Source of the DNA: a virus
Length of the DNA stretch: 64,000 bases
Virus record (IMG/VR): IMGVR_UViG_3300013099_000020
Strand: one strand, 5' to 3'
The translations under genes were made by a program, and so were the position numbers. Of this stretch, positions 17,668-52,200 are shown piece by piece. The notes beneath the pieces were generated by a model. The model did not search any database. It saw nothing but the letters and a program-made list of their open reading frames with translations, and was not told the origin of the DNA. Each line of letters starts with the position of its first letter. Positions within the stretch are counted from its first letter, which is position 1.

Positions 17668-18095
17668 CCAAGAAGTACAAGCCGAAGATCTACGAGGTCT
17701 TCCTCGACATCGCCGACATTCTCGATGAGGAAGTGAAACACAGCTTCCGAAACACCCCTGAGGTTCGGAAGCGGTTGAAGGACACCAAGCACGTTATGGT
17801 GTTCCATGCGCCGGAGTCTCGAATCGATGTCTGCCTGAAGAAGATCTCTGAGGGTGAGCGTTCCAAGTGGAAGGTCGACATCGAGGTTGGGTGGCCAACG
17901 AGTACTTACCACCCGGTGTACGCCATGGAGTGCGCTCGTCAGCACTCCGAGGCAGCTTCCCTGTCTCTTCGGGCTCTTGTGATCGCTGCGGGCTGGGAGT
18001 ACACGAACAAGGAGGTGAGAGCCTCTTGGGCAGAGTACGAGAGCTACCTTCGGAGCCTCGAACATGAGGAGGATAGGGATGAGCAAGAAGCCTGA
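17664..18095 (+). CDS. hypothetical protein
   Basis: ORF; the opposite-strand ORF 17607..18188 has a junk-like R/S/P-rich composition. Confidence 0.5.
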   Translation: MTKKYKPKIYEVFLDIADILDEEVKHSFRNTPEVRKRLKDTKHVMVFHAPESRIDVCLKKISEGERSKWKVDIEVGWPTSTYHPVYAMECARQHSEAASLSLRALVIAAGWEYTNKEVRASWAEYESYLRSLEHEEDRDEQEA

Positions 18096-18777
18096 GCGGT
18101 TCCTTCTGGGGATCGATGAGGCGGGGACCGGCGCGTGGGCGGGTCCTTTTTGCGTAGCCGGCACTGTCTTCCCCCTCGACTTCGACAAAGCTCCCCTATC
18201 AGAGGCGGCGACGTCGCTGGTCTGGGAGGTTACGGCTCCGGAAGGATCGCTCCGACCCTACCGGGACTCGAAGAAGCTCTCCGCGAAGAAGCGCGCTGCG
18301 CTGAGGCCGAGGATCGAACTGCTGGCTGTTGCCCACGATGTGGTCTACGTCTCTCCAGCTACCATTGAGAAGCGTGAGCAGGGTCCGGCTTGGCAGGACG
18401 CCATCATCGAGGTCATTGAGACACTGCTGGATGAGGTTGGGAACAAGGGGGTCGGCCACAGTCGGGTCGACATCATGATCGATGGCAAGCTGAACCACCA
18501 CCTCACCAACAGGATTCACAACGAAGTAGAGCCGGACCTTCAGGTTGATCATCGACCCAAGGGTGATGAGGCATTTCTCGCTGTGTGCGCTGCCTCAATC
18601 TTGGCCAAGACAGGCAGGGACGACTACATGCATGACCTGCACGAGCGGCTTCCCGAGTACAAGTTCAACACGAACGTCGGCTATGGAACGGAGGAGCATG
18701 CTCATGCTCTCGTCTGCCATGGTCGAACAAAGTTTCACAGACCCCTTACGAAGAAGTGGGACCTAGCGGATCGATAG
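18079..18777 (+). CDS. rnhB: ribonuclease HII
   Basis: LGIDEAGTGAWAGP (GIDEAGRG motif), DSKKLS, AASILAK, GYGT..H; ATG at 18079 after GAGGAGGATAGGG. Confidence 0.85.
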   Translation: MSKKPERFLLGIDEAGTGAWAGPFCVAGTVFPLDFDKAPLSEAATSLVWEVTAPEGSLRPYRDSKKLSAKKRAALRPRIELLAVAHDVVYVSPATIEKREQGPAWQDAIIEVIETLLDEVGNKGVGHSRVDIMIDGKLNHHLTNRIHNEVEPDLQVDHRPKGDEAFLAVCAASILAKTGRDDYMHDLHERLPEYKFNTNVGYGTEEHAHALVCHGRTKFHRPLTKKWDLADR

Positions 18778-18842
18778 ATCTTCAGCTAAGGTGCCGCCGG
18801 ATGACCTCGTGCCTGCACGGGGTTTTCCATTGGAGGATGCTT

Positions 18843-19880
18843 ATGAAGAACATCGTAGGAACCGCAGCCGCTGCGCTCATGCTCTGTTCATGTACTGATC
18901 CGATACTCGATGTGGAACAGCAGCAGGAGCAGGAGCCCGAGCCCATCCTGGAAGTTCAGGTTGAGGATGCGTCGGAGGCTGAAGTTGTGGAGCCTGTAAC
19001 GCTGGCGTCGATCTCCGCAGTCCTGGCTGCGTCTCCCAGACGCGGTGAAGATAGCTGGGTGGTGCCGCGTGACCCGAGAGCCCTTCGCCTCAAGACCATG
19101 GAGGCCCTTCTCCGGGTCACCACCAGTGAAGAAGGCTGGGCCAACCACATAGGTATCAGCGCCATCTACGCCGTGATGACTGAGACACGGCGATGCCTAT
19201 CGGTTGGGAACTTCGATGTGTCATGTCGAGACTCCCGTTCGAGCCGTCGAAGGGCACCGGAGCTGTCGTCCCTGTGGCGGCATTCCCCTCGGGCTACTGG
19301 CCAGTATGAGTCCCGGACACGCCGGCAACGCTGGACCAGCACCATGACCCTAGACTGTGGGGAGCCTTCGGGCTGGCCACCCCCACCCTATGCCCAGTGG
19401 GTCAACTACCGGCCCCTCTGTGAGGCGCTGGTAGAGGAGATTGCAGAGGTGGTGGATGGTGAGGCTGCGCGGGCCTGTCCCGAGGGCTCACGGCCCATTA
19501 CATGGGGCTGTGACCCCTTTCGACGCAGAGCAATCTGTGAGGTGCTCGGCCGCCACTGCAACGCAGAGGGGGTAGCTATCACACGGGGGTGCAATGACAC
19601 CCCCATCGCTCACAGGAGAGGCCTGGAGCGGCTTGACTGTGGGGAGACGGCGAACGCCTATTGGTGTCGCCCGGGGACACCCCACTGCGGGACTTTACCG
19701 GAGAGCGAGAGGGTGTTACACGATCGTATACGCTCGGGGGAGGGCGAACGAGATGCAGAGCATGGCTTACGTGGTGGAGCGGATCAGGTGCAAGAACCAT
19801 CAGAAGGTCTTCAGCGGGGAAACATTCCCAACGATGGACCGCTGGTTCTGGGCGTGTTCCGAGTGTCTGGAAACGGGTAG
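18843..19880 (+). CDS. Cys-rich lipoprotein (signal MKNIVGTAAAALMLCSC)
   Basis: Lipobox LMLCSC; many Cys pairs. GC3 in this frame drops after ~19600, where a second frame (19753..19980) has high GC3, so the 3' boundary is uncertain. Confidence 0.45.
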   Translation: MKNIVGTAAAALMLCSCTDPILDVEQQQEQEPEPILEVQVEDASEAEVVEPVTLASISAVLAASPRRGEDSWVVPRDPRALRLKTMEALLRVTTSEEGWANHIGISAIYAVMTETRRCLSVGNFDVSCRDSRSSRRRAPELSSLWRHSPRATGQYESRTRRQRWTSTMTLDCGEPSGWPPPPYAQWVNYRPLCEALVEEIAEVVDGEAARACPEGSRPITWGCDPFRRRAICEVLGRHCNAEGVAITRGCNDTPIAHRRGLERLDCGETANAYWCRPGTPHCGTLPESERVLHDRIRSGEGERDAEHGLRGGADQVQEPSEGLQRGNIPNDGPLVLGVFRVSGNG

Positions 19881-26357: not shown

Positions 26358-26725
26358 TGGGAACGATTCACGACTACAAGAACCGCGATCAGTACCGCGA
26401 GGGCATGCCGAACACTGTCATCTCTGTGGCCAAGGTGGATCGCTACGCGGTCAAGTACACCACCGCCGAGGGCAAGGAGACCATGTGTCTCGTCGACTGC
26501 TTCGGGAAGCTGGCCGATGGAGAGCTAGGCATCTTCATCATCGCAAACGAGAGGGAGATGACTGAGCGCCTGCGGCGCCCCGGTCCGAACCAGCTCGCTC
26601 AGATCCGAGGCAAGATCGCGGACATGATTCCATCGACGATGGATGAGCTGCCCGGTGACCCCGTGCCCGGTGTGGCCGAGGCTCTCGATGATGTCGTGCC
26701 ATCCGATGAGGAAGCGACGGGATGA
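26354..26725 (+). CDS. hypothetical protein
   Basis: ATG at 26354 after GGAGG; ATGA overlap with the previous stop. Confidence 0.45.
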   Translation: MMGTIHDYKNRDQYREGMPNTVISVAKVDRYAVKYTTAEGKETMCLVDCFGKLADGELGIFIIANEREMTERLRRPGPNQLAQIRGKIADMIPSTMDELPGDPVPGVAEALDDVVPSDEEATG

Positions 26726-27123
26726 GACATCCGGCCGACACCTTCGAGTTCAAGGATGGGACGAAGCTCCGACTGATGAACGAAAGCGTTCTGGTCAAGA
26801 TGGATCCCGAGGCTGAGGAAACCTCAGGGGGTATCCTCAAGCCTGACGGTGCGGTCGAACACATCTACATGACCGGCACCATCCTGGCCTTCGGGTGGGT
26901 CCTGGAGAAGAAGCTCGAAGGGACATCCAAGACCAAGTCGCTGGAGAAGCCCTACCCAGTCCCGAACATCGAGCCAGGGCTGAAGTGCTGCTTCATCCGC
27001 TACCGGCGGTGGCAAGACACCAACAAGCAGCTCCGGCATATGTTCGGGGATGACATCATCAGCCTGAAGCCGGAGGATATGATCTTCGTCTTTCCGGCTG
27101 GTGAAGAATACGAACTGGGGTAG
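26722..27123 (+). CDS. GroES/Cpn10-like co-chaperonin (T4 gp31-like)
   Basis: VLVKMDPEAEETSGGILKPDGA....GTILAFG...GDDIISLKPEDMIFVF matches the Cpn10 pattern (V.VK..E.E..T.GGI.LP......G.VLAVG...GD.V.F). Confidence 0.55.
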   Translation: MRHPADTFEFKDGTKLRLMNESVLVKMDPEAEETSGGILKPDGAVEHIYMTGTILAFGWVLEKKLEGTSKTKSLEKPYPVPNIEPGLKCCFIRYRRWQDTNKQLRHMFGDDIISLKPEDMIFVFPAGEEYELG

Positions 27124-27635: not shown

Positions 27636-29468
27636 ATGGCCGAGTATCGCATCGATCAGGCAACCCCGGGAGCAGGCGTACCCAACGTCGCTCGGCATGA
27701 CCTTATCGCCGGGGAGATTCTTACGCTGACAGCCATTTCGCCGGCCCCAGGAGCCGGCGTCAGCTACCTCTGGGAGATTGTCGACAAGATAGGGTCGACA
27801 GCGACCCTGAGCGCCACCACTGGGGCCTCCGTCACCATCGGCCCAGGTGGCTCCATCGTCCAGCCCTGCGGCTTCCAGGTCCGCCTCACAGCCAACGACA
27901 ATGGGGTCATCACCGTCGTCGAGCGGGTCTTCAGCGTCACGACAACCAACCTCGGGCTGAGAGTTCCTCTGTTCGCTGAGACTTCGCCCCCTGAAGCCGA
28001 TCTGGGGTCGAACGATCCCGACGCCTCGACCGACAATGCGGTCTATGTCGATCGGGCTGGGCTGGGCGTCGCCGACCAGAACTGGCGCGGCTGGGCAGAG
28101 TGGGCCTATCGAATCACCATTGCGCTGGATGCTGCCTCGGGTGGGGCCGTAGACACGGATGCCATCCACGATAATGTGGCAGCGGAGATCTCCGCCATCA
28201 CCGAGAAGGTGATTCCGGTTGCAGGCGATCACCTCCTTATCGAGGACAGTGCAAACCTCAACAACAAGAAGCGGGTTCAGATTGGGAACCTCCCCTCCAG
28301 CGCCAGCTCTCAGCAGGATACCTACGACGTAGGCGCGGGCATCGTCCAGACCGATGCTGGCGGGAAGGTGGAGATCGACGACACGGGGACCACCGTTCCG
28401 ACGGACGGGTTCAGTGTTCGTAAGACGACCACCGATGGCGTCGCTGCCTTCTTCCGAAACGAGCAGGTGGGTGGGGCCAACACAGCCCTCCTTACATCTG
28501 GCAAGTCAGCATTCGTCGCACCGTCCGCAGCTCAGGTGGGGGACGTAGGGCACACGTTTGCCCCGGGACGTACGGAGACTCAGGGCGCCCGGAAGGTGAC
28601 CCTGCCCTGGGCGGTGGACGAGTCGTTCGCGGCCATCGGCGGGAACTTCAACTTCATCATCACCGATGGTGATCCCGATGCGCACGTCACATCGGGTGAC
28701 CCAGGATCACTGGCAATCAATCCGACCTCGGGTTCGATCTACAAGAAGACATCGAACCCTTCTTCGTGGGAAGAGCTTGGAGGGGCAGACCTTCCGGAAG
28801 ATAATGAGGTTACCCACGCCACCAACACTACGGTGCTTGGGACCACCTATGTGCTCGTGGGGTCTGTGTACCTCCCGGCGGGAACCATCACAGCCGCTGA
28901 CAGCCGAGTCATGCTTGGCACAGATCAAGTTGCGGATACGGCTGATCTTCAGATTCGACGATTCACGGGCGGCGCAGTCATCGCCACGATCTCTGCAACG
29001 GGGGTGCTCCAGGAAGCGCAGCCCGGCGGGAACATCACTGTCCCAGCAGATGACTGGTACGATCTCTACCTCAAAGCCGATGTTGTCACGACCAATGCCC
29101 TCCTTCGGGGGCTGAGGTTCGTCTATACCCTCAACGCCGGTACTCGGATTCGACAGGCGTTCAATCAGACACAGACGGGTACCACGCCGCTTCTCATAGG
29201 CTCGGTTTATCTGCCCGCAGGCACGCTCCAAGCTACGGCGAAGTGCATGCTGGGTACCTTGGCAGGAGGCACAGCCACTATTGAGCTTAGGCGGTTCACG
29301 GGAGGAGCAGCCATCACGACGTGGACGGCTACCGGGGCTCTTCAAAACTCGGTTCTCGGAGGCAGTGTCGTCACCCCGGCAGACGATTGGTACGACCTCT
29401 ACCTCTACGGCGACGCAGGTCCCACGGTCGCGATTCTCAAGGGCCTTGATTGGACGGTGTTGACATGA
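27636..29468 (+). CDS. tail-fibre-like structural protein with internally duplicated ~90-aa C-terminal domain
   Basis: Two near-identical segments (VLVGSVYLPAGTITAADSRVMLGT...PADDWYDLYLKAD and LLIGSVYLPAGTLQATAKCMLGT...PADDWYDLYLYGD); Gly/Thr-rich beta-type composition. Confidence 0.5.
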   Translation: MAEYRIDQATPGAGVPNVARHDLIAGEILTLTAISPAPGAGVSYLWEIVDKIGSTATLSATTGASVTIGPGGSIVQPCGFQVRLTANDNGVITVVERVFSVTTTNLGLRVPLFAETSPPEADLGSNDPDASTDNAVYVDRAGLGVADQNWRGWAEWAYRITIALDAASGGAVDTDAIHDNVAAEISAITEKVIPVAGDHLLIEDSANLNNKKRVQIGNLPSSASSQQDTYDVGAGIVQTDAGGKVEIDDTGTTVPTDGFSVRKTTTDGVAAFFRNEQVGGANTALLTSGKSAFVAPSAAQVGDVGHTFAPGRTETQGARKVTLPWAVDESFAAIGGNFNFIITDGDPDAHVTSGDPGSLAINPTSGSIYKKTSNPSSWEELGGADLPEDNEVTHATNTTVLGTTYVLVGSVYLPAGTITAADSRVMLGTDQVADTADLQIRRFTGGAVIATISATGVLQEAQPGGNITVPADDWYDLYLKADVVTTNALLRGLRFVYTLNAGTRIRQAFNQTQTGTTPLLIGSVYLPAGTLQATAKCMLGTLAGGTATIELRRFTGGAAITTWTATGALQNSVLGGSVVTPADDWYDLYLYGDAGPTVAILKGLDWTVLT

Positions 29469-30754: not shown

Positions 30755-31804
30755 ATGGCAAAAGTAACCAGCGTAAATCTCCTCCCGACATCGGGCTCAG
30801 ACGCGATCTTCTTGCTCAAGGAGGTGTTGGTGCTTGCAGGGTGGGTGGTGCCTTCTTCAAGTGATGGCACCACCTACAACGCTGCTGGAGACCAAATCAC
30901 GCACTCCGGGTCGGGGGCAAATGGCTTGGCCAACTCGAATGCCTGGTTCCGACTTCGGAGTCCTGCTGGGCGCGAGTACACCTACCAGCGAGACACGATC
31001 TACCACTACCAATGGAGAATCAAGTACAGTGCGCTCGATCAGTTTGTTGGGGGATCACCCGACGCTATCGAGACTCCTTCAGCTAGTGATGAGCAGATCA
31101 TCATTGGCACGGGCACTGATGCGTCCCCCACGCATCACTCCTTTTTCGATTCTGCTGCTGGGTCTTTCCGGTGGCACATCATCGCTCAAGATGCTGCGAC
31201 GGGGCCCGCAGGCAACGAGGTCTACGGGTTCTGGGCCTTCGCTACCGAGGTGAGCACGGGTGATCTCGAAACCGTTCTCATGCAGGAGCCCACGGATCCT
31301 GGCAGCTACCCGGCACTCGTAGGGACACGTGCTGCGCCGATCACTGGGGACCCTGACCCAGTCATCATCATCTTCCAGCACAGTGGGTCGAAGGGCCATA
31401 TGAGGCACACACAAGGTACCTCAAGGGGGTGGTCCGACCAGGTCGTGTCATCCAACAGCAAGAGGTATTGGTTTCAGTACAACAACACGAACGAGGGGGC
31501 GGAGGCTTTTGTGGGAGGCCAAGGGGGTATGTGGATCGGGGACAACTCACCGGCAGCCGCGCACATGCCTGGGCACATGGGTGCGAACCCCTACGACAAC
31601 TCGGAAGAAGGTTTTGGCTTCCTTTTCGGACGGCCGGGGCTCGGGTATACGACGCAAGTAGGCTCGAAAGGCATCCCAGCCTTCATTCGAGTGAAAGCAG
31701 TGAACCGGGAGTACCCAAGCGTCATCAACCTCAATACCGACGCCTACATATACCTCGAAGACAGTCTCGTACCTTGGGAAGATGGCACGCTACCGCTCGT
31801 GTGA
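30755..31804 (+). CDS. receptor-binding / tail-fibre-like protein (paralog A)
   Basis: Shares long blocks with 31814..32878: WRIKYSALD, HIIAQDAATGP, SYPALVGTRAAP, GDPDPV, KYWFQYNNTN, GAEAFV, GDNSP. Confidence 0.55.
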   Translation: MAKVTSVNLLPTSGSDAIFLLKEVLVLAGWVVPSSSDGTTYNAAGDQITHSGSGANGLANSNAWFRLRSPAGREYTYQRDTIYHYQWRIKYSALDQFVGGSPDAIETPSASDEQIIIGTGTDASPTHHSFFDSAAGSFRWHIIAQDAATGPAGNEVYGFWAFATEVSTGDLETVLMQEPTDPGSYPALVGTRAAPITGDPDPVIIIFQHSGSKGHMRHTQGTSRGWSDQVVSSNSKRYWFQYNNTNEGAEAFVGGQGGMWIGDNSPAAAHMPGHMGANPYDNSEEGFGFLFGRPGLGYTTQVGSKGIPAFIRVKAVNREYPSVINLNTDAYIYLEDSLVPWEDGTLPLV

Positions 31805-31813
31805 GAGAAGGCC

Positions 31814-32878
31814 ATGGCAAAGATCACAGACGTAAATAACAACGGCATCAACGGGTCCGCAGCGATCTTCCGTCTCAAGGCCGTACTGAAAGCGGCTGGC
31901 TGGACCGTCACACAATCGAGTGATGGTACGACATACAATGCCTCCGGGGACCAGATTTCAATCGAAGGGGCGGGTGCTGGTGGAATGGAGAACACCAATG
32001 CCTGGTTCGAGATCCAAGATCCAGCGGGTGGGCGCGAGCTTAGCATCCAGCGTGGTACGACCAACGTTGCGTGGCGGATCAAGTACAGCGCGCTCGACAC
32101 CTTCTCTGCGGGTTCTCCCGGGGCCACACAGGTCGGGGCCACGGCGGGTGGTCCGGGAGATGACGAGCAGATCCTCCATGGTGCCGGCACCGACGCGAGC
32201 CCCACGTTCTCGACGCTCTTCGCATCGGCCAGTACTTTTTATTGGCATGTCATCGCTCAGGATGCTGCCACGGGTCCAGTGGGTAACGAGTCCTATCCAT
32301 TTTGGGCGTTCGCTACGCATGATGGGTCGGGCGAAATACGCACCACCATCTTCTGTGAGGTGATGGACCCCGATAGCTACCCGGCACTCGTAGGGACACG
32401 CGCCGCTCCCACCACCGGAGACCCCGACCCCGTTGTGCTGTGTGTTCAGTACGATTCGAGTGGTGGGGGGATTTTCAAGCTATCCCAAGGGGCCACCAAT
32501 GGGTGGTGTGAGACTACTGCAACCAACAAGAAGAAGTATTGGTTTCAGTACAACAACACGAACAGTGGAGCCGAGGCGTTTGTGCAGGGTCATGGCGGAG
32601 GTACAATCCTTGGAGACAACTCCCCCACTGTAACGCTTTCGCGGAACTTCCCGAGCAACCCCTATGACGGGTCAGATCAAGTGCTTCAGTTCCTACTCGC
32701 ACGCACGGGGGCGGCGTATACCACTCAGCTTGGCCTAAAGGGCTACCCCATGTTCATGAGGTCGCGCACCATCTCTGGTCGTGCATACCCGGACACGCTT
32801 TCTCTGGCCACTGACGCCTACGTCTACGTCGAGGACACCTTGATTCCCTGGGAAGACAACACAACTCCGATCGTATAA
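31814..32878 (+). CDS. receptor-binding / tail-fibre-like protein (paralog B, tandem duplicate)
   Basis: As above; the same GAGAAGGCCATGGCAAAG start context as paralog A. Confidence 0.55.
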   Translation: MAKITDVNNNGINGSAAIFRLKAVLKAAGWTVTQSSDGTTYNASGDQISIEGAGAGGMENTNAWFEIQDPAGGRELSIQRGTTNVAWRIKYSALDTFSAGSPGATQVGATAGGPGDDEQILHGAGTDASPTFSTLFASASTFYWHVIAQDAATGPVGNESYPFWAFATHDGSGEIRTTIFCEVMDPDSYPALVGTRAAPTTGDPDPVVLCVQYDSSGGGIFKLSQGATNGWCETTATNKKKYWFQYNNTNSGAEAFVQGHGGGTILGDNSPTVTLSRNFPSNPYDGSDQVLQFLLARTGAAYTTQLGLKGYPMFMRSRTISGRAYPDTLSLATDAYVYVEDTLIPWEDNTTPIV

Positions 32879-33174: not shown

Positions 33175-33331
33175 GTGATCGAGCGTGCTATTCTACTTCT
33201 TGTACTGTTGGCTTCGTGCGCAAGCTCCCCACCGCCTGGGCCTGTGTGCGTGGTCTCTGGTTGTGCTCCTGACCAGCGTTTCGATGCTGATCATTGCCGT
33301 TGCGTGCTGAGAGACGATGCGAGCCTTGAGT
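33175..33331 (+). CDS. small Cys-rich lipoprotein (~51 aa; ILLLVLLASC lipobox)
   Basis: GTG start right after the upstream stop; hydrophobic segment ending LASC; stop overlaps the kinase start (TGATG). Confidence 0.35.
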
Positions 33332-34439
33332 GATGGTGATCGACTACCAGAAGTTCTTCGATGCTGCATTCGATCTCCTCTGCGTGGTTGATGCCACTCA
33401 TTTCCTGTCAGTGAATCAGGCGTGGGTTACGGTGCTGGGGTACTCCAAGGAAGAGCTGCTAGGCAGTCCTTGGGAAGACTTCATTCACCCGGAGGACCGG
33501 CAGCGAAGCAGAGATCGGTACGGTCAAGTACCTTCCGAAGGGGCCTTCGTGAATCGGTACATCACCAAGGATGGTGATGTCGTCTGGTTGGAGTGGTCCC
33601 TGCTTCCCCATCAGGACAGTGACTGTGTGCATGCCGTGGCGAGGGATATCAGCAGCTGCAAGGTGGTGGAAGAGCAGCTCGGAAAGTCCGTGCTGAAGCT
33701 CCGTAGGAAGGCGGAGGAGCTGGAAAGATCGAACCGTGACCTGGAGCAGTTCGCCTACGTCGCATCCCACGACCTCCAGACTCCACTGCGCAAGGTCAAG
33801 AACTTCACCATACTCCTACGCCGAGAGTACGGGGACGTGCTGCCCAGCGAGGATGCCCAGAAGTACCTGCGCTTCATCATCAATGGGGCGGAGAAGTCCC
33901 AGGCTCTGATTGATGGACTACTGGCCTTCTCTCGCACTGGACGGCACCTGCGGATAGAGGAGACAGACTTGAACGTCCCCCTCCGAGAAGCACTCTCGAT
34001 CCTTAGCGAGTTCATCCAGGAGCGCGGAGTTTGTGTGACGGCAGACTCACTACCCATAGTACAGTGTGACTCGGTCCTTCTGGCGCGTGTGTTTCAGAAC
34101 TTGGTGGGCAATGCGGTCAAGTTCCGTCACCTCGAACGCCCACCAAGGGTTCATGTGGGTGTCGAAGTTGAGGGCACCGACTGGAAGTTCACAGTAGAAG
34201 ATAATGGAGTCGGTTTTGACCCAAGGCACGCAGAGCGGATTTTCGTAATCTTCCAACGTCTTCCGGGTATAAAGCAGGGGACAGGTCTCGGCCTGGCCCT
34301 CTGCAAGAAGATCATTGAGCAGCATGGTGGCCGCATATGGGCAGAGAGTACCCCCGGGGAAGGCTCTCGGTTCATCTTCACCATTCCGCAGGAATACAAG
34401 AACGGTCATGCATACACTGAACCCCCTGCGCCCCGCTGA
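33332..34439 (+). CDS. cytoplasmic PAS-domain sensor histidine kinase (PAS - HisKA - HATPase_c)
   Basis: PAS-like N-terminus; H-box FAYVASHDLQTPLR; N-box NLVGNAVKF; G1 DNGVGFD; G2 GTGLGLALCKKIIEQHGGRIWAES; no transmembrane segment. Confidence 0.8.
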
Positions 34440-34854
34440 GATCCTTCTCGTAGAAGACGATGAAGGTGATGCTCTTCTGACCGAGAAGGCCCTGGAGATG
34501 GGGGAGATCCCCTTCCACCTTCAGGTAGTGGAGACCGGGGAGGAAGCCCTCGAACTCATCTATGGGGAAACGAAGTTGCGCCCAGACCTCATCTTATTGG
34601 ACCTCAATCTCCCCGGTGTGCAGGGTGGGGAGGTGCTTGAGACCCTCAAGACTGATCTTGAACTGCGTAGGATACCAATCGTTATCCTGACGAGTTCCAG
34701 GTCGGAAAGTGACATTCTTGCTTCATATGAGAGGCACGCAAACACCTATATGGTAAAGCCAGGGGACCCTGACATTTTTGAAAGGGTTGCGCGTACCTTG
34801 GGGGACTACTGGTTCCAGGTCGCGTTGCTGCCTCGGGGGTACTTGTGTCCATAA
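34408..34854 (+). CDS. single-domain CheY-like response regulator
   Basis: ILLVEDDEGD ... LILLDLNLP ... ILTSS ... K: receiver-domain hallmarks with phospho-acceptor Asp in LLDLNLP; start overlaps the kinase 3' end. Confidence 0.75.
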   Translation: MHTLNPLRPAEILLVEDDEGDALLTEKALEMGEIPFHLQVVETGEEALELIYGETKLRPDLILLDLNLPGVQGGEVLETLKTDLELRRIPIVILTSSRSESDILASYERHANTYMVKPGDPDIFERVARTLGDYWFQVALLPRGYLCP

Positions 34855-35636
34855 TCGATGTGCTGCTGGTAGAGGATGATGAGGGCGAAGCCTTCGTCAT
34901 CGCGCGCCTACTGGGTGAGGCTGTCGATGTACGGTTCACGGTGGCGCATGTCACCACACTGAAGAGCTGCCTACAGTATCTGGAGCTGAGGAAACCCGAC
35001 ATCGTACTGTTGGATCTCTCACTCCCCGACTTCCATGGGTATGACACTGTCGTGGAGTACACCAAGCACGCAGAGACCCCCTTCCTTGTGCTCACGGGGA
35101 ATGATGACATGCACATGGCTGCACGCTCTATGGGTCTAGGAGCGCAGGACTATGTTTTGAAGAACGATCTCCAGGCGCGGAAGCTGGAGATGTCGATCTT
35201 GTTGGCTGTTCGTCGCCATAATGCACAGACCGTTTCTCGAAAGCTTGAGCACTCTTCACGCACGTTGGTGTTTGATGGGAATGAGACGCGGGCAACACTG
35301 TCCATGGTGCGCCCCCATATCGAGGAGCTGATTGCGGCTATCGAAGATCTTGAGGACCACCTACGACGTAACGCCCCAAACACCATGGATGATGTCGAAG
35401 CCCTCCTGAAAAAGCATCATGTACACCCCACCATCCGTGAGGTTCAGAGCATTCTGCGGCTTCAAAAGGAAGTGCGCCCAACGCGCTCTCGATCAATATC
35501 GGAGCAAGCCATTCAGATGATAGAGGGGGTTGTCACGAGAAGGCAGGCAAAAGACTCTGAGGCCCCTCAAGACTTCTCTACCGCAGAGGCTGACCTTCTA
35601 GATGTGATCAATCGCCGTGAGGGTGGCAATGGCTGA
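34845..35636 (+). CDS. response regulator: REC domain plus ~140-aa C-terminal domain of unknown function
   Basis: VLLVEDDEGE ... IVLLDLSLP ... LVLTGNDD; the C-terminal half has no recognisable output domain. Confidence 0.7.
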   Translation: MSIIDVLLVEDDEGEAFVIARLLGEAVDVRFTVAHVTTLKSCLQYLELRKPDIVLLDLSLPDFHGYDTVVEYTKHAETPFLVLTGNDDMHMAARSMGLGAQDYVLKNDLQARKLEMSILLAVRRHNAQTVSRKLEHSSRTLVFDGNETRATLSMVRPHIEELIAAIEDLEDHLRRNAPNTMDDVEALLKKHHVHPTIREVQSILRLQKEVRPTRSRSISEQAIQMIEGVVTRRQAKDSEAPQDFSTAEADLLDVINRREGGNG

Positions 35637-36039
35637 CGGGAATAAAGTGTACATCCAGCTCTCCAAGGAAATCGCCGAACTAGATAAGGACCTGACCCGT
35701 GGGCTGGCCTCAGTCGGGTATATGGCGAAGGCGAACAAGGGTGACCTTGATCGTCTCATTGAGCGGGTCGAGAAGCTGGAGGAAGAACTTCAGGCAGTGC
35801 GGCGACGTGAGGCCGCCAATGGGGTGCGGCTGCACACCCTCGAAGATGCGAAGAAGGACCACACAGGCAAGTTCGAGACGATCTCTAGCCAAGGGTTCCA
35901 TGTCGCTGTTGAAAACAAGAAGGCTCGCACTGAGAGCATGAAGGCTCGCCTAGCCTTTTGGGGGCCTATCGCCCTCCTGATCATCGCGAATGTCATCTCC
36001 CTTGCGCTGCACTGGGCTGGCATTAGTTTCGGAAACTGA
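35629..36039 (+). CDS. coiled-coil protein with C-terminal transmembrane helix
   Basis: ATG at 35629; C-terminal FWGPIALLIIANVISLALHWAGI. Confidence 0.45.
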   Translation: MADGNKVYIQLSKEIAELDKDLTRGLASVGYMAKANKGDLDRLIERVEKLEEELQAVRRREAANGVRLHTLEDAKKDHTGKFETISSQGFHVAVENKKARTESMKARLAFWGPIALLIIANVISLALHWAGISFGN

Positions 36040-41830: not shown

Positions 41831-42499
41831 CTATGCATTTACCGTGTGGCGAAGCTGAGGCAGGGCTTCATCGATCATCGTGTAGAACTCCGGCAGAGTG
41901 CCTGTGTTGTCGAGCACCTTGTCGAAGATCGAGAGGCTGATGTTGGCCAGCTCAGCTTCACTGGCGTGGCTGAAGCGCTGCTCACCTCGAAGGAGCCTCG
42001 CAACCACCCCACCTGCATCCTTGATACCCACGACTTCGTTTAGGAAGCGGCAGTCGGGGATCACCCAGTCCTCTTCCCCTATGTCCACACGTCGTCGGAT
42101 GTGGCTGAGGCAGGCATCCACCCAGATGTTCGGGTAGAGGGTGCGCCCCCACTCTGTGCCAAGCGTCTGGAGCGCCAGGCGCGGGGTGACGAACTCCCTG
42201 TAGTGGACGTCGCAGGCCTCGCACCACCAGATGGCCCATTCAGGCATGGCGTCTTTGTGCCAGCGCCGGCATCCTTGTTGGCAGTGTGGGCAGGTCCCTG
42301 AGAACAGGTAGCGTGTGTCCTCCTCTTCCCTGAAGGAGCTGGGTCCGTAGAGCTGCTCATCGGAGAAGTCGAAAGCGATCCGTGCGGCCTCCTTCAGGGG
42401 GAAGGCGAAGCTGACCTTGTTGAACCCGTGGTGGGCTACGAGGTGATCGGCGAAGGTGTCCTTCCCCGAGCCAGCGAACCCACACACCCCTATGATCAT
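41831..42499 (-). CDS. deoxynucleoside-monophosphate kinase-like P-loop kinase (T4 gp1-like) with inserted zinc finger
   Basis: N-terminus MIIGVCGFAGSGKDTFADHL parallels T4 dNMP kinase MKLIFLSGVKRSGKDTTADF; insert CPHCQ...C...CEAC; the track start at 42631 adds a P/R-rich junk-like extension, so the ATG at 42499 is preferred. Confidence 0.6.
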   Translation of the reverse strand: MIIGVCGFAGSGKDTFADHLVAHHGFNKVSFAFPLKEAARIAFDFSDEQLYGPSSFREEEDTRYLFSGTCPHCQQGCRRWHKDAMPEWAIWWCEACDVHYREFVTPRLALQTLGTEWGRTLYPNIWVDACLSHIRRRVDIGEEDWVIPDCRFLNEVVGIKDAGGVVARLLRGEQRFSHASEAELANISLSIFDKVLDNTGTLPEFYTMIDEALPQLRHTVNA

Positions 42500-42846: not shown

Positions 42847-45800
42847 ATGACCTATTTCACCTCAGGGACCATAAGCCAAATGATGGCTGGGCAGAACTCC
42901 ATGTTCTCCCAGAACGCCTACATGGCTCAGCAGATGTCCCAAAGCATGGGGGGCGCAGGCATGTCCGGGGGGATGCCCATGCCGCAAGCGGCGCCCCCAC
43001 CTCCCATGATGATGCCTCCGCCCCCCATCTCTCGGGGCGGGGCTGGCGCAGCCATGATGGGCGAGCGTATGGCGGGAGGCGTAGCCTCCTTCGGACAGAA
43101 CGTCGCCGCACCGGCAGCGATGGGTGCCGCCTCCTTGTTCGGGGCCGCCGGAAGCATGGGCATGATGGGGACCGCCGGCAAGATGGCCGGGATGCTCGAT
43201 CCCATGAGCATGATGATGCGCGGCGGCTCGATGGGGTCGGCCATGATGGGCGGCGGTGCCATGGGCATGGTCGGAGGCATGATGGGTGCGGGAGCAGTGG
43301 CAGCTCCCCTCTATGCCGGTGCCAAGGCCGTCGGGGCGTATGCCGATGCCTTCAGTGGGGGGATGCAGGATCAATCGGCCCTCAACTCGAACCTGCGTCA
43401 GAACTTCAACTTCGCTGGGGGACGCCAGGGGCGAGGCTTCAACCAACAGCAGATGGGTGCTGTCGGTGGGGTCATTCAGCAGGAGCTGAACCGCAACGTC
43501 TTCTCGAACGCAGGGGAGATGAACCAGCTCGTCTCCGGGGGAGCCCAGGCGGGCATGTTTACGGGGGTTCGAGATGTCTCGGCCTTCGCTACGAAGTTCC
43601 GCCAGATGCTCGACACCCTGAAGGCAGTGCAGACAGAGCTGGGTGGCACACTCACTGAAGCCCTTCAGTTCGTCAACGAGTCGAAGCAGGCCGGCATCTT
43701 CCAGCAGATGGATCGGTCACAGTTCGCGACCCAGATCCGAAACGTGACTCAGGTTACGGGGATGAGTCGGCAGGACGCCATGAGCATGGCCGTCCAGGGA
43801 GCCTCGATCGCTCGTCAGACGGGAGGCGTCGGCGCTCAAGGTGCGATGGGCGCCACCAAGATGGCCACGACGATGGGTACGGCCCTCAATGAGGGGATCG
43901 TCAGCCAGGAGATGCTGTCGGAAGCAACTGGTGGGGCGACAGGTACCCAGGCTATCCAGCAGTTCACCACCAATATGATGCAGCGTACTGGCCGCTTCCT
44001 GAAGCGTCCGGGGATGGGGCGTTACGCGACGTTCGCTTTGGCCGGAGAGGATGGGAACCTCGACGAGGGGATGTTCAACCGGTTCCTGACTGGGGACATC
44101 TCGACAGGCTCAGTCGGCAATGCAGCTCGCCGGAATGTCCGTTCGATGGGCAGGGCGGAAGCTATCAACCGTTCTGGTGAGATCCGAGGCTCCATCATGG
44201 AGCGAGGAGGCATGGCCGGACAGATCGGCATGATGAAGCTCATGCTCGGTGATCGAGTGATGCAGGGCGGGGATCACCTCTCCTCCTTGGTCATGCAGCG
44301 TCGCTTCAAGATGTCTCGTCCAGAGGCGGACATCATGCAGACCCTGATGCGGAATCAGGGTCAGATTGCCCAGACCGAGAACATCGAGCGCGGGATAGGG
44401 AGGCGGAGCGCAGAGCGCGAGCAGGACATCGCTCAGAACCGAAGCTTCGATGCGGTGTCGAAGCACATCGGTCATGGCCTCAAGGAAGGGCTTGGGATCA
44501 ACAAGGTTCGGCAGATGGGTCGGCGTTTTATCACAGGGCTGTCTTCTCAGGTTCAGGATGTCATGGACGACATGCTCGGCATCGTTCGAGACGAGATGAG
44601 CCGAGGGTCGGCCATGGCCATGGAGCGGGCCTCCATCGGCCGTGCCACCGCTGGGGACATCCGACGGCTGGATGCGTTGCAGCAGATCGGTGGTGGCGGT
44701 GGAGGCGGTGGTGGAGACCCCTTTGAGCAGGGGATCCTGGAGCGGTTTGGTCCTGATCGAGGTCGCGGGCGACAGCTAGAGTCAGCTGGGTTTGACATCA
44801 GCGGTCGTGGCGGTGGTCGGCGTGGGAGGATTATCCGAGAAGCCGTTGGCAGCAGCATACCTTTAGATGAGCAAAGGGAGCGGGCAAGCGTTGCTGAGGC
44901 AGCGATGCGGGATGCGAGGGCAGGGATAGCTACCGGCCCTCGGGCTCGTCGCCAACTTCAGGAGATGCTGGCCGATAGGCAGGGTACTCAGACGAAGATC
45001 AGGCGGGCCAGGATGCTCGCCCGTGGCCGCGAGGGAGGCGTTGAAGCTGACTTCTCAAACGACATGTCAGAAGACGGGATGGAGCCGACAGCAGTCGCAG
45101 CCTTTATGGCTCGGACGGGGATGGCTGAATCGGAAGGGCTGACAGAAGATAGCCAAGCAGGCAGTGGTGCCGCTGGGCGTGGCGCCAGAAACATTGCGCG
45201 CGGTGTCGTTATGGGTGCGGCCACCATGCTGACGATGGGGGTTGGGGGGATTGCTCTCTATGCGGCTGGGGCGGCGGCCGAGAGCATGGGTCTTACCGAC
45301 ACCAACATCATGGCTATGGAGGAGGCCCCGGGCGTGGCAGCCCGGGATACAGCCGCCGAGTACTTCATGGGGGGAGGAGCCCTGGGAGAGGCCGGAAGGC
45401 ACGCCAAGGAAAACCGAGGCTATGCTCAGAGGTTGGCGGGCCACGGAGATGACATCATCGCTCGGGGTCAAGCTGCCCAGATAGGTAGCCGTGAAACGAT
45501 CGATGCAATCTTTGACGGCGTAGAGATGCAGGACGTCGCTTTCGCCATGATGGAAGGCGGGGACAGCGCCACCGCGGCTCTTGGACGGTTGCAGGATATG
45601 GCTACGGCTGAACAAGACCCGACCCGTCGCCAGGCTTTGGAGTCGATGGCAGAGAGTGCTACCCAGGAGATCAGGGACACTGGGAAGGTCGGAGAGCAGT
45701 GGGGGCGGATGGCCTTCACTGATCGCGTTGCTCAGGAAGCTACCCAGTCGGAGGGCCGCCGTCTAGGCGTCGCTAGGAACTACGGAGCTGTGGCCGGCGC

Positions 45801-46638
45801 GCTCGGACAGCTTGAGAACAACAGCATGGCCGCGATCTTGGCCGATGACATGTCAAGTCTGGGTGCGGCTTTCCGAGACAGCACAGGCTCTGGGAATGCG
45901 ACTGCCCAAACCCTCATCACAGACCTTGCTGCCCTGGATGAAGGGTCCGTGAATGACATTCAAGGGGCCCTGGGTCAGGTGATCACCGGGGAAGGAAGGG
46001 AAGAAGTACGTGAACAAGCGCGTGGTTTCTCCATGGCTCTCGGACAACAGCGTGCCACCCGAGAAGCTCTTATTGGCAGAGGTCGGCGAGGGCGCAGGCA
46101 GTCCCTCGAAACAGCCATGGGAGTCGCAGGAGGGCTCGGTCGAAACCTAGAGATCAAGATGGGCGAGGGCGACGACCAGAGAAGCATTCGAGGGCAACGC
46201 TCTGAACGCATGGTCGAGAGGTTCCTGCGCGGTGGCCGGGGGATGGGTCGAGAGCAGCGGGAGGCAGTGCGGCAGGCGCTCAGTTTGCAGATGGAGACTG
46301 GGGGCCTCGGTGAGGACCAGCAGCAAGAACTTCAGGAAGCCCTTGAGGGTGTTGCTCGTGGAGGCTCGCGTGAGGATCGTTCCGCCGCCGCCGATGTCAT
46401 GATGGGTCTCCAGAAAAACCCAGCGTTCCGAAGGACTTTCGAGGAGCTGAACAAGCAGCAGACAGATCAGGCGATGGCAGCAGCCGGGCGACGAGACCCC
46501 ATGGGTCAGCAGCGGAATGATCTCCTCACCCGCATCCTTGCAGCGCCCGGCGTTTCAAACGCCCCTAACGGTGAGCAGGTTCCTCCTGCGAATGGTGGCG
46601 TCGCTGACGGCCCCGACCAGAATATGTCACGTGGATAA
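42847..46638 (+). CDS. giant virion protein (1263 aa): Gly/Met/Ala-rich N-terminus, long Q/A/R-rich helical body, poly-Gly, hydrophobic segment; tape-measure or ejection-protein-like
   Basis: Low-complexity MGGAGMSGGMPMP... N-terminus; GGGGGGGGG run (~44690); transmembrane-like GVVMGAATMLTMGVGGIALYAAGAAA; size and composition are typical of tape-measure/internal proteins; no catalytic motif seen. Confidence 0.45.
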   Translation: MTYFTSGTISQMMAGQNSMFSQNAYMAQQMSQSMGGAGMSGGMPMPQAAPPPPMMMPPPPISRGGAGAAMMGERMAGGVASFGQNVAAPAAMGAASLFGAAGSMGMMGTAGKMAGMLDPMSMMMRGGSMGSAMMGGGAMGMVGGMMGAGAVAAPLYAGAKAVGAYADAFSGGMQDQSALNSNLRQNFNFAGGRQGRGFNQQQMGAVGGVIQQELNRNVFSNAGEMNQLVSGGAQAGMFTGVRDVSAFATKFRQMLDTLKAVQTELGGTLTEALQFVNESKQAGIFQQMDRSQFATQIRNVTQVTGMSRQDAMSMAVQGASIARQTGGVGAQGAMGATKMATTMGTALNEGIVSQEMLSEATGGATGTQAIQQFTTNMMQRTGRFLKRPGMGRYATFALAGEDGNLDEGMFNRFLTGDISTGSVGNAARRNVRSMGRAEAINRSGEIRGSIMERGGMAGQIGMMKLMLGDRVMQGGDHLSSLVMQRRFKMSRPEADIMQTLMRNQGQIAQTENIERGIGRRSAEREQDIAQNRSFDAVSKHIGHGLKEGLGINKVRQMGRRFITGLSSQVQDVMDDMLGIVRDEMSRGSAMAMERASIGRATAGDIRRLDALQQIGGGGGGGGGDPFEQGILERFGPDRGRGRQLESAGFDISGRGGGRRGRIIREAVGSSIPLDEQRERASVAEAAMRDARAGIATGPRARRQLQEMLADRQGTQTKIRRARMLARGREGGVEADFSNDMSEDGMEPTAVAAFMARTGMAESEGLTEDSQAGSGAAGRGARNIARGVVMGAATMLTMGVGGIALYAAGAAAESMGLTDTNIMAMEEAPGVAARDTAAEYFMGGGALGEAGRHAKENRGYAQRLAGHGDDIIARGQAAQIGSRETIDAIFDGVEMQDVAFAMMEGGDSATAALGRLQDMATAEQDPTRRQALESMAESATQEIRDTGKVGEQWGRMAFTDRVAQEATQSEGRRLGVARNYGAVAGALGQLENNSMAAILADDMSSLGAAFRDSTGSGNATAQTLITDLAALDEGSVNDIQGALGQVITGEGREEVREQARGFSMALGQQRATREALIGRGRRGRRQSLETAMGVAGGLGRNLEIKMGEGDDQRSIRGQRSERMVERFLRGGRGMGREQREAVRQALSLQMETGGLGEDQQQELQEALEGVARGGSREDRSAAADVMMGLQKNPAFRRTFEELNKQQTDQAMAAAGRRDPMGQQRNDLLTRILAAPGVSNAPNGEQVPPANGGVADGPDQNMSRG

Positions 46639-49248: not shown

Positions 49249-52200
49249 ATGGCATACGCACAACGATTACACCTCCGACTGTTTCTAGAAGGGGTCGAGG
49301 TCCCCGTGATCTCTGCCAATGTTCAGTCTGGGATCAACCAGGCGGCCGTGGCATCCATTCAGATCCCCGCCAACGACTTCGCCCTCGAACTCAAGCCACG
49401 TACCCTCGTCCACCTGTTCTTCTACGACTTCTATCGAGGTGCCCCGCCGGAGGGGAGGAACTTCGTCCAGGGTGAGGGGATCACGGTCTCCCAAGAGCAA
49501 GAGGTAGACCCAGAACTCGAAAGTGTTCTCGCTGAGCTGCGCATCAACGAGTCGACCCCAGACCAACTTGCGATCGATCTGGAGAACGAAAACTACAAGC
49601 TCATGTTCGGTGGAGAGATCACCGGCATCTCGGTGTCCAAGACGCCCACCACCCGGGGGATCGTTCTCCAGTGCATGGACTGGTCCAGCTACTGGGACTT
49701 CGCCTTCCAGTATCAGGTCAGCGGCTACAGCTTGGGCGGCGGTGGGATCCGAGCTGCCTTCACTGGTGCAAGCACGACCATCTTCAATAGCTTCCTGGAT
49801 GGGGATGCAGACATCATCACCCAGCTGATGTCGACTGCTCCCCGGGGGTTCCCCCAACTCCAGGGCACACTCCTCGGTGCCTTGGTACACATCATCGAAG
49901 CGATCGGAGGAACTTACTATGGGCGGAATGCTGTTCGAGGCACTAACGATTTCTTCAGCCTGGCAGAGATGCGTCTGCACCTCACTCAGATGGTTGGAGC
50001 AAACCCCTTCTCGAATCGAGATGAGAATCGCCTACTACGTGCTCATGGGTTTGGGAGTCTTTTTCGACGGAAGCTCGCCGGTCTGGGGAAGCAGGTATCG
50101 ATTAGGGCTGTGCTCAATGCTCTTCAGCCCTACATATTCCACGACATTGTCCCCGTCACATCGCCGCATTTTATCCCAGCTACGACTGACCCCCGGCTGC
50201 CCCAGTTCGAGAAGGTGGGGATCGAGGAAGATGAAGAGTCTGCCCCCATCGCTCGAACGGCGCGGTTCATCAAGAGCAGGGCCCTGGAGCTGAAGAGCCG
50301 GCAGGGGAACAGCACAGACTCCCGGTCATCCCAGAGGCAGTCTCGCCGACGCGGAGGGCTGGCCAGGGAGATAGACCGCTACCGCCGCATGTGCATCACC
50401 GCTATGGAGCGTGCTCGGGGCGTCGGGGTCAACCGACGGGTAGACCGCAGGTTCGATCGGCTGTTCCGCCTCGAAGGTGTTCACGAGAAGTTTGCTGCGG
50501 CTGCGGAGAAGTTCCGAGGGATCAAGAACGCCACACGAACGGCGTCGGGTGCAGGCGTCCGCCCCCACCAGCTCTTCTTGACGGGGAGTCGGTCTGCCAA
50601 GGCAGTCGTCCGCCTCTGTGACGAGCTTGAAGCGGACATGAACAAAGTCCTGGCGTCGAAACATCGGCGTCGGATAGCCCGCACCACCCAGCAGCCCGAC
50701 CCCCCGCCACGCCTGATCACGCAGGCCTGGCGCCCAGACGTGTGGATGGTGGCGCCCCCACGTTGCAATGTGATCTTCCCTGAGCTGTACTCGCAGTTCT
50801 CCTACAGCCGCAACTTCATGCAGGAGACCACGAGGCTCTTGCTGCGTACGTCCTCCGTCTTCTTCGGCAGTGACATCCTGTTCGACGGGTTCTACATGGC
50901 CCCCAGTCGGGCGGTAGGTCAGCGGGACGGGGAGCGATCTCCTGCAAGAGGCAGGCTCAACAAGACCCCACCTGACGTGGTTGATGCTCCGGCCTGGTTC
51001 ATCCGCGACCTCATGGAGCACGAGCTGTACACGGGGATCCTCCCGAAGTTCGAGCGCATGTCGAACCTGAACCTGCATGCGCTTCGTGGGGCGACGGGCA
51101 CTGTGGCTACGGAGCAGGGCGCTGTCCGCGTCAGCTATGCAGCCCTGGCCTGCAACCACATCTTCTTCAAGCAGCGCTTCCAGAGTCGCCAGCTTCAGTT
51201 CTCCGGGAAGTTCAACCCCTTCGTGGTGAATGGTTTCCCCACGGTGATCATCGACAAGTACCAGAGTCGAGCAGACGTCGACAACAGCGAGTACGACGCG
51301 GCGCTCGCGGCCCGGATTGCGGAAGCAGCCAACGAGGGTCGAGGGGAGATAGGCGGCCTGCCTGCCGAGCAGGAAGATCAAGTTGCTCTAGCTTCGGATG
51401 GGCGGGTCCTCGAACTCGCTGATCAGATTGCGGCACAGACCCCCAACACCCACTACCTCGGGACTCCCCAGGCTCTTACCCACACCGTCTCCATAGATGG
51501 TGGGGGCACCACCTCGATGCAGATGGGCTATGCCCGGACGACCAACGAGACCACCGAGTTCTTGGGAGATGCTCGATCAACTACGGGGCGAAGCCCCCAG
51601 TTCGACCGCCTTCGAGACACCTCGGTTGCGAGCACCGTTGCCTGGACCTCTGAGCCACAGGTAGGGGATCGAGGCCCGCGGGGAGGGGACATCACTCACG
51701 TAGATGATGTCACGGAGGAGTACCGCCGTAGGCAGGGCGCGCGACCCACTCGGGGACGCAGGGGTCGGACCGCCTCGGGTCAAGACAGGCTTCGTCATGC
51801 AAGCCGCACTCAGATCCCCTTGTGGATCCCCGGAGGAACTATCTCCCGGCGGCGCTACCGAGGGACCCGGGTCTTGGTCGGAGTGTCGCAGGCTGCCGCA
51901 GCCTACGGGCCGGAGGTCGTGGCTATCGTCGGTTCGATTGGGGAGCAGCAGGCTGGGTTCATCACCCGGACAGATGGGACCCGGACTGAGATCTTCATCG
52001 AGTTCAAGGCCTGGCGTATCCGCGAGACCATTGGTATCTACAGGCGCCGAGGCACCACCTCACTTCCTCCAGAAGAGCTGGTCTTCCCACCTTGGTATGG
52101 GGACCACTGGAAGGCTCATGCGGTTGGAGGGATCTACTCGCACCTCTTCGGTACGGGATCTATCGTCGATGAGACGACCTTCCGCGCACCCACGGACTCC

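Follow-up and report, generated by a model that had tools for sequence, protein, structure and literature searches.

Layout of the signalling cassette and its proteins

The virus record IMGVR_UViG_3300013099_000020 from IMG/VR was analyzed as one stretch of 64,000 nucleotides (nt), which is called the window in the following and belongs to a metagenome contig of 75,377 bp from ENA. At 33.3–36.0 kb it contains a cassette of four tightly packed genes on the plus strand, which encode a histidine kinase (HK), two response regulators (RR1 and RR2), and a tail-anchored coiled-coil protein. The original prediction, a first reading of the sequence, had claimed that a complete two-component system is present at this site, and this was verified by the Pfam matches to HisKA, HATPase_c, and Response_reg and by the presence of all catalytic residues. 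The fourth gene, which is coupled to RR2, had been overlooked. The genes and features of the cassette, including an open reading frame (ORF) upstream of it, are:

33175-33333, plus strand: ORF of 52 aa, questionable as a gene, whose leader is of the lipoprotein type; it lies in the gap of 161 nt before the kinase gene
33333-34439, plus strand: HK, 368 aa from the ATG at 33333 (alternative start GTG at 33330), assigned by Pfam and motifs
about 33342-33653, plus strand: PAS domain of the kinase
about 33741-33935, plus strand: HisKA/DHp domain of the kinase, phospho-acceptor H146 at nt 33768-33770
about 34068-34394, plus strand: HATPase_c domain of the kinase
34408-34854, plus strand: RR1, a bare receiver of 148 aa, gene call of the source (an ORF is also listed from 34315), assigned by Pfam
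34845-35636, plus strand: RR2, a receiver with a C-terminal domain (CTD), 263 aa, assigned by Pfam
about 34860-35165, plus strand: receiver of RR2, with D11, D57 (nt 35013-35015), T84, and K106
35166-35633, plus strand: CTD of RR2, lineage-specific and predicted to be all-helical
35629-36039, plus strand: fourth gene, 136 aa, coiled coil with a C-terminal membrane anchor

The genes overlap by 32 nt (HK/RR1), 10 nt (RR1/RR2), and 8 nt (RR2/fourth gene), and the layout is thus typical of translational coupling. At the last of these junctions the stop codon of RR2 is overlapped by the start of the fourth gene (ATGGCTGA). A scan of 32.5-36.5 kb for promoters and terminators revealed nothing beyond the expectation from shuffled sequences. 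The GC content of the cassette was found to be lower than that of its surroundings, as had been predicted. With 0.556 it is the lowest of all stretches of the same size in the window (0.3 percentile; mean 0.595, standard deviation 0.016). The deficit resides mostly at codon position 2 (GC2 0.36-0.38), and therefore the low GC content appears to reflect the protein composition more than a foreign origin and is by itself no sign of foreignness. Recent horizontal acquisition was rejected as the main explanation of the low GC content, because of this codon position effect and because the cassette is ancient in its clade (see below). Membership in a defence system was also rejected. PADLOC yielded only partial receiver matches for RR1 and RR2, which covered the N-terminal 60 aa (PDC-M60B, SduA) and are generic to receivers, and neither the kinase nor the fourth gene nor the neighbouring genes matched any of its defence models.

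For the comparison of the cassette 12 loci were used, i.e., the window and 11 related loci, nine of which were compared by tblastn and two of which (L107 and L108) were added. The kinase gave Pfam matches to PAS_3 (5.9e-16), HisKA (1.1e-9), and HATPase_c (7.5e-27). It contains an H-box (ASHDLQTPL, with H146), an N-box (GNAVKF), a G1-box (DNGVGF), an F-box (IFVIFQRL), and a G2-box (GTGLGLA), and all five boxes are retained in 12 of 12 loci. A hydrophobic or transmembrane (TM) segment was found in none of the three proteins HK, RR1, and RR2, and therefore the kinase is predicted to be soluble and cytoplasmic. These results bear out the soluble PAS-domain histidine kinase with H, N, G1, and G2 boxes that had been claimed. 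The closest solved structures of the kinase core are histidine kinase modules of bacteriophytochromes (8avv, 8uph, 9ys3). Pfam detected neither a GAF nor a PHY domain in the kinase and only PAS-family matches at residues 5-108; the PAS-GAF-PHY core with a bilin-binding Cys, by which the phytochrome type is recognized, is thus absent.

The sensor part of the kinase varies across the clade. The window version has a PAS domain, versions of 259-280 aa are devoid of it, and the version in L107 comprises 483 aa (8144-9595). Further related kinases are encoded in L002 (8782-9567; 261 aa, without PAS) and in L108 (8804-9823). In bacteria, thousands of homologues exist that are 42-47% identical to the kinase.

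RR1 matched Response_reg (2.8e-17) and no other Pfam family, in line with the stand-alone CheY-like receiver that had been proposed. The key residues are D17/D18, the phospho-acceptor D65 (nt 34600-34602), T95, and K117, and they are retained in the 12 loci, with the exception of D18, which is replaced by Asn or His in some of them. The top matches in the PDB include Rcp1 (5e-25), the BphP-RR fusion 8avv (6.9e-25), RcpA (1.5e-24), and RcpB (1.2e-19). Judged from these similarities, RR1 is an Rcp-type single-domain response regulator, the gene of which overlaps the kinase gene. In L108 the RR1 gene is present at 9549-9998, where it had not been called by the source.

In RR2 the Response_reg match (8.6e-17) is confined to residues 6-107, and the remaining ~155 aa do not belong to any Pfam family. 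The claim of a receiver fused to a novel C-terminal domain, which had been put at ~140 aa, was therefore correct. Across 41 RR2 sequences D11, D57, and K106 are invariant, and T84 is present in at least 90%. Structure prediction yielded pLDDT (predicted local distance difference test) values of 86 for the full-length protein and 85 for the CTD alone, and in the model the CTD is all-helical. Helix α5 of the receiver extends to residue 142, and three helices (147-176, 178-190, and 193-209) fold back, so that a compact domain of ~100 residues is formed, which is followed by two flexible helices at 218-235 and 244-260. The near-invariant positions of the CTD (N176-x-P178, K190, and S219) look structural.

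Various searches for relatives of the CTD were performed. No Pfam match was obtained for any of 28 members, even at E<=1, and no sequence match in the PDB. In particular, no HTH, wHTH, AAA+/Fis, LytTR, ANTAR, or other nucleic-acid-binding family was detected in these 28 sequences at E<=1. As a fold search with full-length RR2 was swamped by receiver matches, the CTD was modelled alone, and this model was searched against PDB and BFVD. In a profile search, the CTD was retrieved in only 64 clusters among 1.84 billion representative proteins. Nearly all of them have a length of 245-300 aa with the CTD at about 110-260, and the domain thus appears always to be located behind a receiver. The original prediction had suggested checking whether host genomes carry the nearest homologues; the 80 best matches in 185,579 species-representative genomes of GTDB shared the receiver only, and none of them carried the CTD. 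Likewise, a hidden Markov model of the CTD found the domain exclusively in loci of the viral type. In summary, relatives of the CTD are not known, and it occurs only in the REC+CTD architecture. An HPt-like or enzymatic nature of the CTD was considered and rejected, because conserved His residues or invariants of the catalytic type are missing, and identity with ANTAR was rejected as none of the members gave the respective Pfam match. The DNA-binding or enzymatic output fold that had been suggested earlier was thus not found; instead, an all-helical bundle without HTH was modelled.

The fourth gene encodes a protein of 136 aa, in which an N-terminal coiled coil is combined with one TM helix at the C-terminus, and because of this location of the helix the coiled coil is predicted to be cytoplasmic. 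A homologue directly follows RR2 in 10 of 10 loci, and a gene of the same size is found at this position in L107 and L108. The homologues have 129-185 aa, the same layout, and three shared motifs (L..DL.RG, (D/E)HTGK, and K.K..WG) preceding the TM helix. The gene is conserved as well as those for HK, RR1, and RR2. Pfam returned only coiled-coil noise.

The 52-aa ORF upstream of the kinase had been predicted to encode a mini-lipoprotein that belongs to the system. The ORF itself exists, its lipobox is valid (LLAS/C, leader MIERAILLLVLLAS/C), and its TGA overlaps the ATG of the kinase (TGATG). A leader of the lipobox type is present in just 2 of the 586 window ORFs of at least 40 aa. A role as a component of the system was not confirmed. 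The ORF was not called by the gene caller of the source, it is absent from the nine related loci compared, including the closest one (L022), its exact sequence is not contained in a collection of 15 billion proteins, and no homologue was found. In addition, its GC content at the three codon positions (0.70/0.53/0.49) is atypical, as the GC3 of window genes is 0.62-0.81. The ORF may be a lineage-specific small gene, but it lies outside the conserved signalling module and may not be a gene at all. The possibility that the 52-aa lipoprotein and the fourth protein form a spanin pair, as o-spanin and i-spanin, respectively, was rejected, because the lipoprotein ORF is not conserved and the coiled coil of the fourth protein is cytoplasmic. 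A second ORF for a mini-lipoprotein is located at 10642-10791 on the plus strand (49 aa, MQFKVMVFMLLVGC..., lipobox LVG/C). It is preceded by a strong ribosome-binding site (AAGGAG, 7 nt upstream) and its GC contents at the three codon positions are gene-like. It is the better candidate for a small lipoprotein than the ORF at 33175-33333.

Conservation and origin of the cassette

The gene order HK, RR1, RR2, and fourth gene is common to the window and the 11 related loci, and the genes are invariably direct neighbours that run in one direction and overlap. The nine loci compared by tblastn are collinear with the window, with identities of 38-63% for HK, 39-73% for RR1, and 31-58% for RR2, and L107 and L108 are arranged alike. 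HK, RR1, and RR2 were the only window genes with tblastn matches in all nine loci. The catalytic motifs of the kinase and of both receivers are retained in all 12 loci, down to identities of 31-40%. For RR2, about 40 full-length relatives with 31-58% identity were found, all of them metagenomic and several of them on contigs of 111-196 kb. The long contigs that carry the cassette have sizes of about 110-196 kb. Six relatives are contained in IMG/VR, three of which are viral contigs of 169, 177, and 186 kb. The clade thus appears to consist of large, very divergent, uncultivated phage-like genomes, and the cassette is a conserved signature of it.

Two sub-lineages could be distinguished by the neighbouring genes. 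The window, L022, L004, L010, and L011 have the neighbours of 610 aa and 564 aa in common. In L024, L002, and L108, a NUDIX gene is located upstream of the cassette and a gene for a DnaJ-like protein downstream, and within ±10 kb essentially nothing but the four cassette genes matches the window.

The kinase cores were also compared in a neighbour-joining tree, which included 85 long bacterial kinases that were the next-best database matches. One split of this tree united the 12 cassette kinases and 28 short metagenomic kinases with 0 of the 85 long bacterial kinases. Related cassettes were not found in bacterial genomes, as judged from the 80 best GTDB matches.

By these sequence comparisons, the cassette is an old module that has been inherited as a unit across the lineage. 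Its collinearity, the retention of the motifs, and the position of the kinases in one clade argue against a recent moron. A recent host-derived origin, as implied by the original prediction, is thus not in agreement with the presence of the cassette in all 12 loci at identities of 31-73% and with the separation of its kinases from those of bacteria. The pattern of conservation rather suggests that a functional phosphorelay has been under purifying selection for a long time, while its input has diversified.

A putative branched phosphorelay and alternative explanations

The residues for autophosphorylation at H146 and for phosphotransfer to D65 of RR1 and D57 of RR2 are present and are conserved in the clade, as read from the sequences. 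We hypothesize that the four-gene operon specifies a virus-encoded, cytoplasmic, branched phosphorelay with an output by protein-protein interaction, probably at the membrane, and we assign a probability of about 0.6 to this explanation. The soluble kinase would read an intracellular cue via its exchangeable N-terminal module and would phosphorylate both receivers. The Rcp-type RR1 might serve as a competing phosphate sink or as a small protein-binding switch. Phosphorylation of RR2 would alter the packing or the dimerisation of the long helical bundle that continues from α5, and a repacking of this kind would have a protein-protein interaction as its output, rather than DNA binding or catalysis. 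The likeliest partner or target of RR2 would be the co-translated tail-anchored coiled-coil protein, which is a candidate for this role, and the response would take place on the cytoplasmic side of the inner membrane, where it might control a membrane step of infection, e.g., the timing of lysis or the exclusion of other phages.

A more far-reaching version of this hypothesis is an autonomous decision circuit, not present in any of the cellular genomes examined, in which the cytoplasmic kinase with its exchangeable sensor modules would drive a new class of response regulator (REC plus the helical domain, termed 'NAP'). The phosphorylation state of RR2 would control the tail-anchored protein and thereby a membrane event, e.g., lysis timing or superinfection exclusion, that is set by the physiological state of the host. 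This version is tentative, and we would rather expect that it does not hold in full. If true, two-component signalling would have an output branch that is specific to viruses, and a phage phosphorelay would exert sensory control over the lytic programme.

Several points weigh against the proposed phosphorelay or limit it. Phosphotransfer and the choice between RR1 and RR2 are deduced from sequence. The PAS domain gives no clue to the ligand, and the solved structures closest to it are generic PAS domains of the ARNT-like or GGDEF-associated kind. The putative link between RR2 and the membrane protein follows from their invariant adjacency and translational coupling only. The sole hint of a lysis-type function is a match of the fourth protein to phrog_1193 'hemolysin' (best value 3e-4, 3 of 10 members), in which a coiled-coil bias may be involved. 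The neighbour-joining tree is without support values, and its most divergent kinases are about equally distant from the bacterial kinases and from one another. Finally, profile searches of the 64-kb window and of 11 kb beyond it did not reveal any terminase, portal, capsid, or tail family, and the phage identity is inferred from the gene content and from the computational classification in IMG/VR.

Known systems are available for several aspects of the proposed mechanism. Branched pathways in which one receiver acts as a phosphate sink exist, e.g., CheA with CheY1 and CheY2 in Sinorhizobium. In that case, too, one kinase is combined with two receivers, one of which is bare, and this is compatible with a sink role in the cassette. 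In contrast to the Sinorhizobium system, the cassette contains no chemotaxis components, and its branching is deduced from gene content only. Receivers with helical outputs that do not bind DNA are also known, namely the REC-coiled-coil proteins FrzS and AglZ and the adaptor regulators of the RssB type. However, the CTD of RR2 matches them neither in sequence nor in fold, and it contains neither a long coiled coil nor a PP2C domain.

One alternative is that the system is directed at the host. The kinase and the receivers might mimic pairs of bacteriophytochrome-type kinases and Rcp regulators, cross-talk with host pathways, and reprogram the physiology of the host instead of forming a self-contained phage circuit, either by phosphorylating host regulators or by withdrawing phosphate from the kinases of the host. 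Indeed, the bacterial class to which the kinase core and RR1 belong is very large, and they are unexceptional members of it, in view of the bacterial homologues with 42-47% identity, and their closest solved relatives are bacteriophytochrome kinases (8avv, 8uph, 9ys3) and the Rcp regulators Rcp1 (1i3c), RcpA (1k68), and RcpB (1k66). The cassette resembles Cph1-Rcp1 and BphP-BphR in RR1 and in the kinase core (H-box ASHDLQxPLR, HisKA plus HATPase_c), and in phytochrome/Rcp systems the regulator gene directly follows the kinase gene, as in the cassette. The similarity does not extend further. Instead of a PAS-GAF-PHY core there is a single PAS_3 domain, or none or a longer sensor part in the relatives, and the cassette includes a second regulator, the output domain of which is new, and a membrane-anchored protein, and it is carried by phage-like genomes. 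An action on host regulators has been proposed for phage-borne kinases without own regulators, i.e., AgrC of phiCDHM1 (PMC3901668) and PhoR of soil viruses (PMC10987575). In contrast, two cognate-looking receivers are present in the same operon in every lineage of the clade, which points to an insulated internal pathway, and cellular counterparts are lacking for RR2 and for the fourth gene. An action on the host is therefore regarded as rather improbable.

Still somewhat less probable is the explanation that RR2 is a regulator of transcription or RNA, the C-terminal helices of which bind DNA, RNA, RNA polymerase, or the sigma-like factor of the phage and thereby switch phage gene expression, in line with the original prediction. 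Most response regulators with output domains are transcription factors. In addition, the window encodes a sigma-like protein, the RR2 linker at 210-217 is basic, and an alignment of the full-length model of RR2 with EutV, an ANTAR regulator, covered 151 residues, owing to the extended α5. However, the absence of nucleic-acid-binding families from the 28 CTD sequences speaks against this explanation, and the two C-terminal helices are separated not by a tight turn but by a disordered acidic linker that contains proline.

That the region is not viral at all, but a misassigned bacterial chromosome, plasmid, or mobile element with an ordinary cellular two-component system, is very improbable: the searches of 75 kb did not detect a hallmark family of virions, one relative (P0126) was binned in a 'Deltaproteobacteria' metagenome-assembled genome, and many GenBank 'phage' records with kinases resemble bacterial contamination, but the gene content is phage-like (no ribosomal or core metabolic genes, nearly exclusively ORFans on one strand, a dNMP kinase of phrog_139, and a tRNA cluster), six relatives are found in IMG/VR, three of them as contigs of 169-186 kb, related loci contain tubulin and a faint CIS_tube match, and the CTD occurs in 0 of the 80 best matches from the 185,579 genomes. 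One such GenBank record is MW462191 'Bacteriophage sp.', which carries a PleC-like kinase and resembles bacterial DNA.

The branched phosphorelay was also compared with signalling genes described for other phages. The Clostridioides difficile phage phiCDHM1 encodes AgrC together with AgrB/AgrD and explicitly no response regulator (PMC3901668). It is similar in that a phage genome carries a histidine kinase that is thought to provide the virus with sensory input. However, its locus is a host-derived accessory of one temperate phage, whereas the cassette is complete, clade-wide, and equipped with a virus-specific output. In soil viral contigs, PhoR/PhoB-like genes have been interpreted as auxiliary (PMC10987575). 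The genome of the Microcoleus phage My-WqHQDG (OR578706; L105, 5356-7406) contains, within a replication block, a gene for a PAS-kinase of 545 aa annotated as 'hypothetical', which is followed by a gene for a receiver-only protein. This kinase is only 29% identical to that of the cassette. The PhoR/PhoB and My-WqHQDG genes are isolated and host-like, they are accompanied by neither a REC+CTD regulator nor a tail-anchored partner, and evidence of clade-wide conservation is lacking. My-WqHQDG is a deposited jumbo cyanophage, and the preprint describing it is silent on the kinase/receiver pair. A survey of 224 jumbo phages reported just a divergent cREC outside kinase systems (PMC7824862), and the huge-phage paper does not mention kinases. 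The literature search did not retrieve a description of a complete two-component system encoded by a phage. The view that phage-encoded two-component systems are very rare was thus correct as to rarity, but precedents exist in phiCDHM1, the soil PhoR/PhoB genes, and My-WqHQDG. Compared with these sporadic phage kinases, the completeness, the clade-wide conservation, and the virus-restricted output branch are new.

Bacteria rely mainly on two-component systems for sensing, and in phages only scattered, host-like single genes have been found. A complete operon for a kinase and two regulators has been retained while a viral clade diverged deeply, to identities as low as ~30%, which implies that selection has persistently favoured the ability of the virus itself to sense some cue while it infects. 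None of the cellular genomes searched contained the output domain or the membrane partner, and the CTD adds a new output domain to the repertoire of response regulators. The cassette offers an entry point to how large lytic phages measure the state of the host, as it encodes four small proteins, three of them soluble and all expressible. A role similar to a lysis-lysogeny decision, which had been suggested earlier, received no support, because no integrase was present among the Pfam and PHROG matches and the searched bacterial genomes yielded no related cassette.

Genomic context and additional genes

Nearly all genes of the window are ORFans on one strand. The recognizable functions are a dNMP kinase, an HD hydrolase, a 3'-5' exonuclease, RNase HII, a Cpn10-like protein, a patatin, a methyltransferase, and a weakly supported sigma-like protein. 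In the family overview each of 64 window proteins was scanned, and it returned genes of replication and nucleotide metabolism only. The following features were located:

41831-42499, minus strand: dNMP kinase of the phage type (phrog_139, 4.9e-47)
54288-55097, plus strand: sigma-like protein (Sigma70_r3, 2.1e-5, below the threshold of Pfam)
26722-27123, plus strand: Cpn10/GroES-like protein, assigned via the homologue in L004
60702-61568, plus strand: patatin-like phospholipase
832-1072, minus strand: cluster of three tRNAs (Leu-CAA, Tyr-GTA, Leu-TAG)
12171-12247, minus strand: a fourth tRNA (Ile-AAT), alone

With their location on the minus strand the tRNA genes deviate from the rest of the genome, which is encoded on the plus strand.

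Among the related loci, L024 showed the faint CIS_tube match, and L108 encodes a tubulin-family protein of 433 aa (PF00091) at 17903-19204, about 8 kb downstream of the cassette. Tubulin homologues are known from some jumbo phages.

The cassette had been placed in a phage tail-fibre region, next to structural genes. The phage-like character of the genome was supported, but a tail fibre is unproven, as the flanks are ORFans and the neighbours are different in other loci (NUDIX, DnaJ-like). The neighbouring proteins of 610, 339/344, 349, 354, 96, and 564/581 aa did not match any structural family in Pfam, PHROGs, the PDB, or deposited phages. The Pfam and PHROG scans also included the largest proteins of the window, again without a structural family, and the PDB searches, made with two of the neighbours, yielded no match. 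A megablast search with 30-40 kb against deposited phages yielded no match, and tblastn searches of deposited phages with the proteins of 610, 564, 1263, and 1197 aa yielded none or one marginal match each. In the 610-aa protein (27636-29468, plus strand) the first ~170 residues are shared with four related loci at about 60% identity and the rest is unmatched. This pattern of a conserved anchor and a variable tip is typical of receptor-binding proteins and is an indirect hint at such a function, for which the homology searches gave no evidence. Just upstream of the cassette two tandem paralogues of 349 and 354 aa are encoded (30755-31804 and 31814-32878, plus strand), which are 54% identical. 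They have no homologues in the PDB, Pfam, or PHROGs and were matched in only one of the nine related loci (L010, weakly). This variable pair is a second indirect hint at receptor-binding proteins.

Very large ORFans without a Pfam or PHROG family are encoded at 42847-46638 (1263 aa) and 49249-52842 (1197 aa), both on the plus strand, and, beyond the window, in L109 at 12646-15219 (857 aa) and from 17331 to the end (more than 1350 aa). The N-terminus of the 1197-aa protein marginally matches a 'cell wall hydrolase' of the Salmonella phage Arash. Lastly, a protein of 871 aa (1448-4063, plus strand) contains the shoulder domain of the major vault protein (PF11978, 3.1e-22) and a vault repeat (PF17795, 8.3e-8), which is unusual for a phage-like genome.

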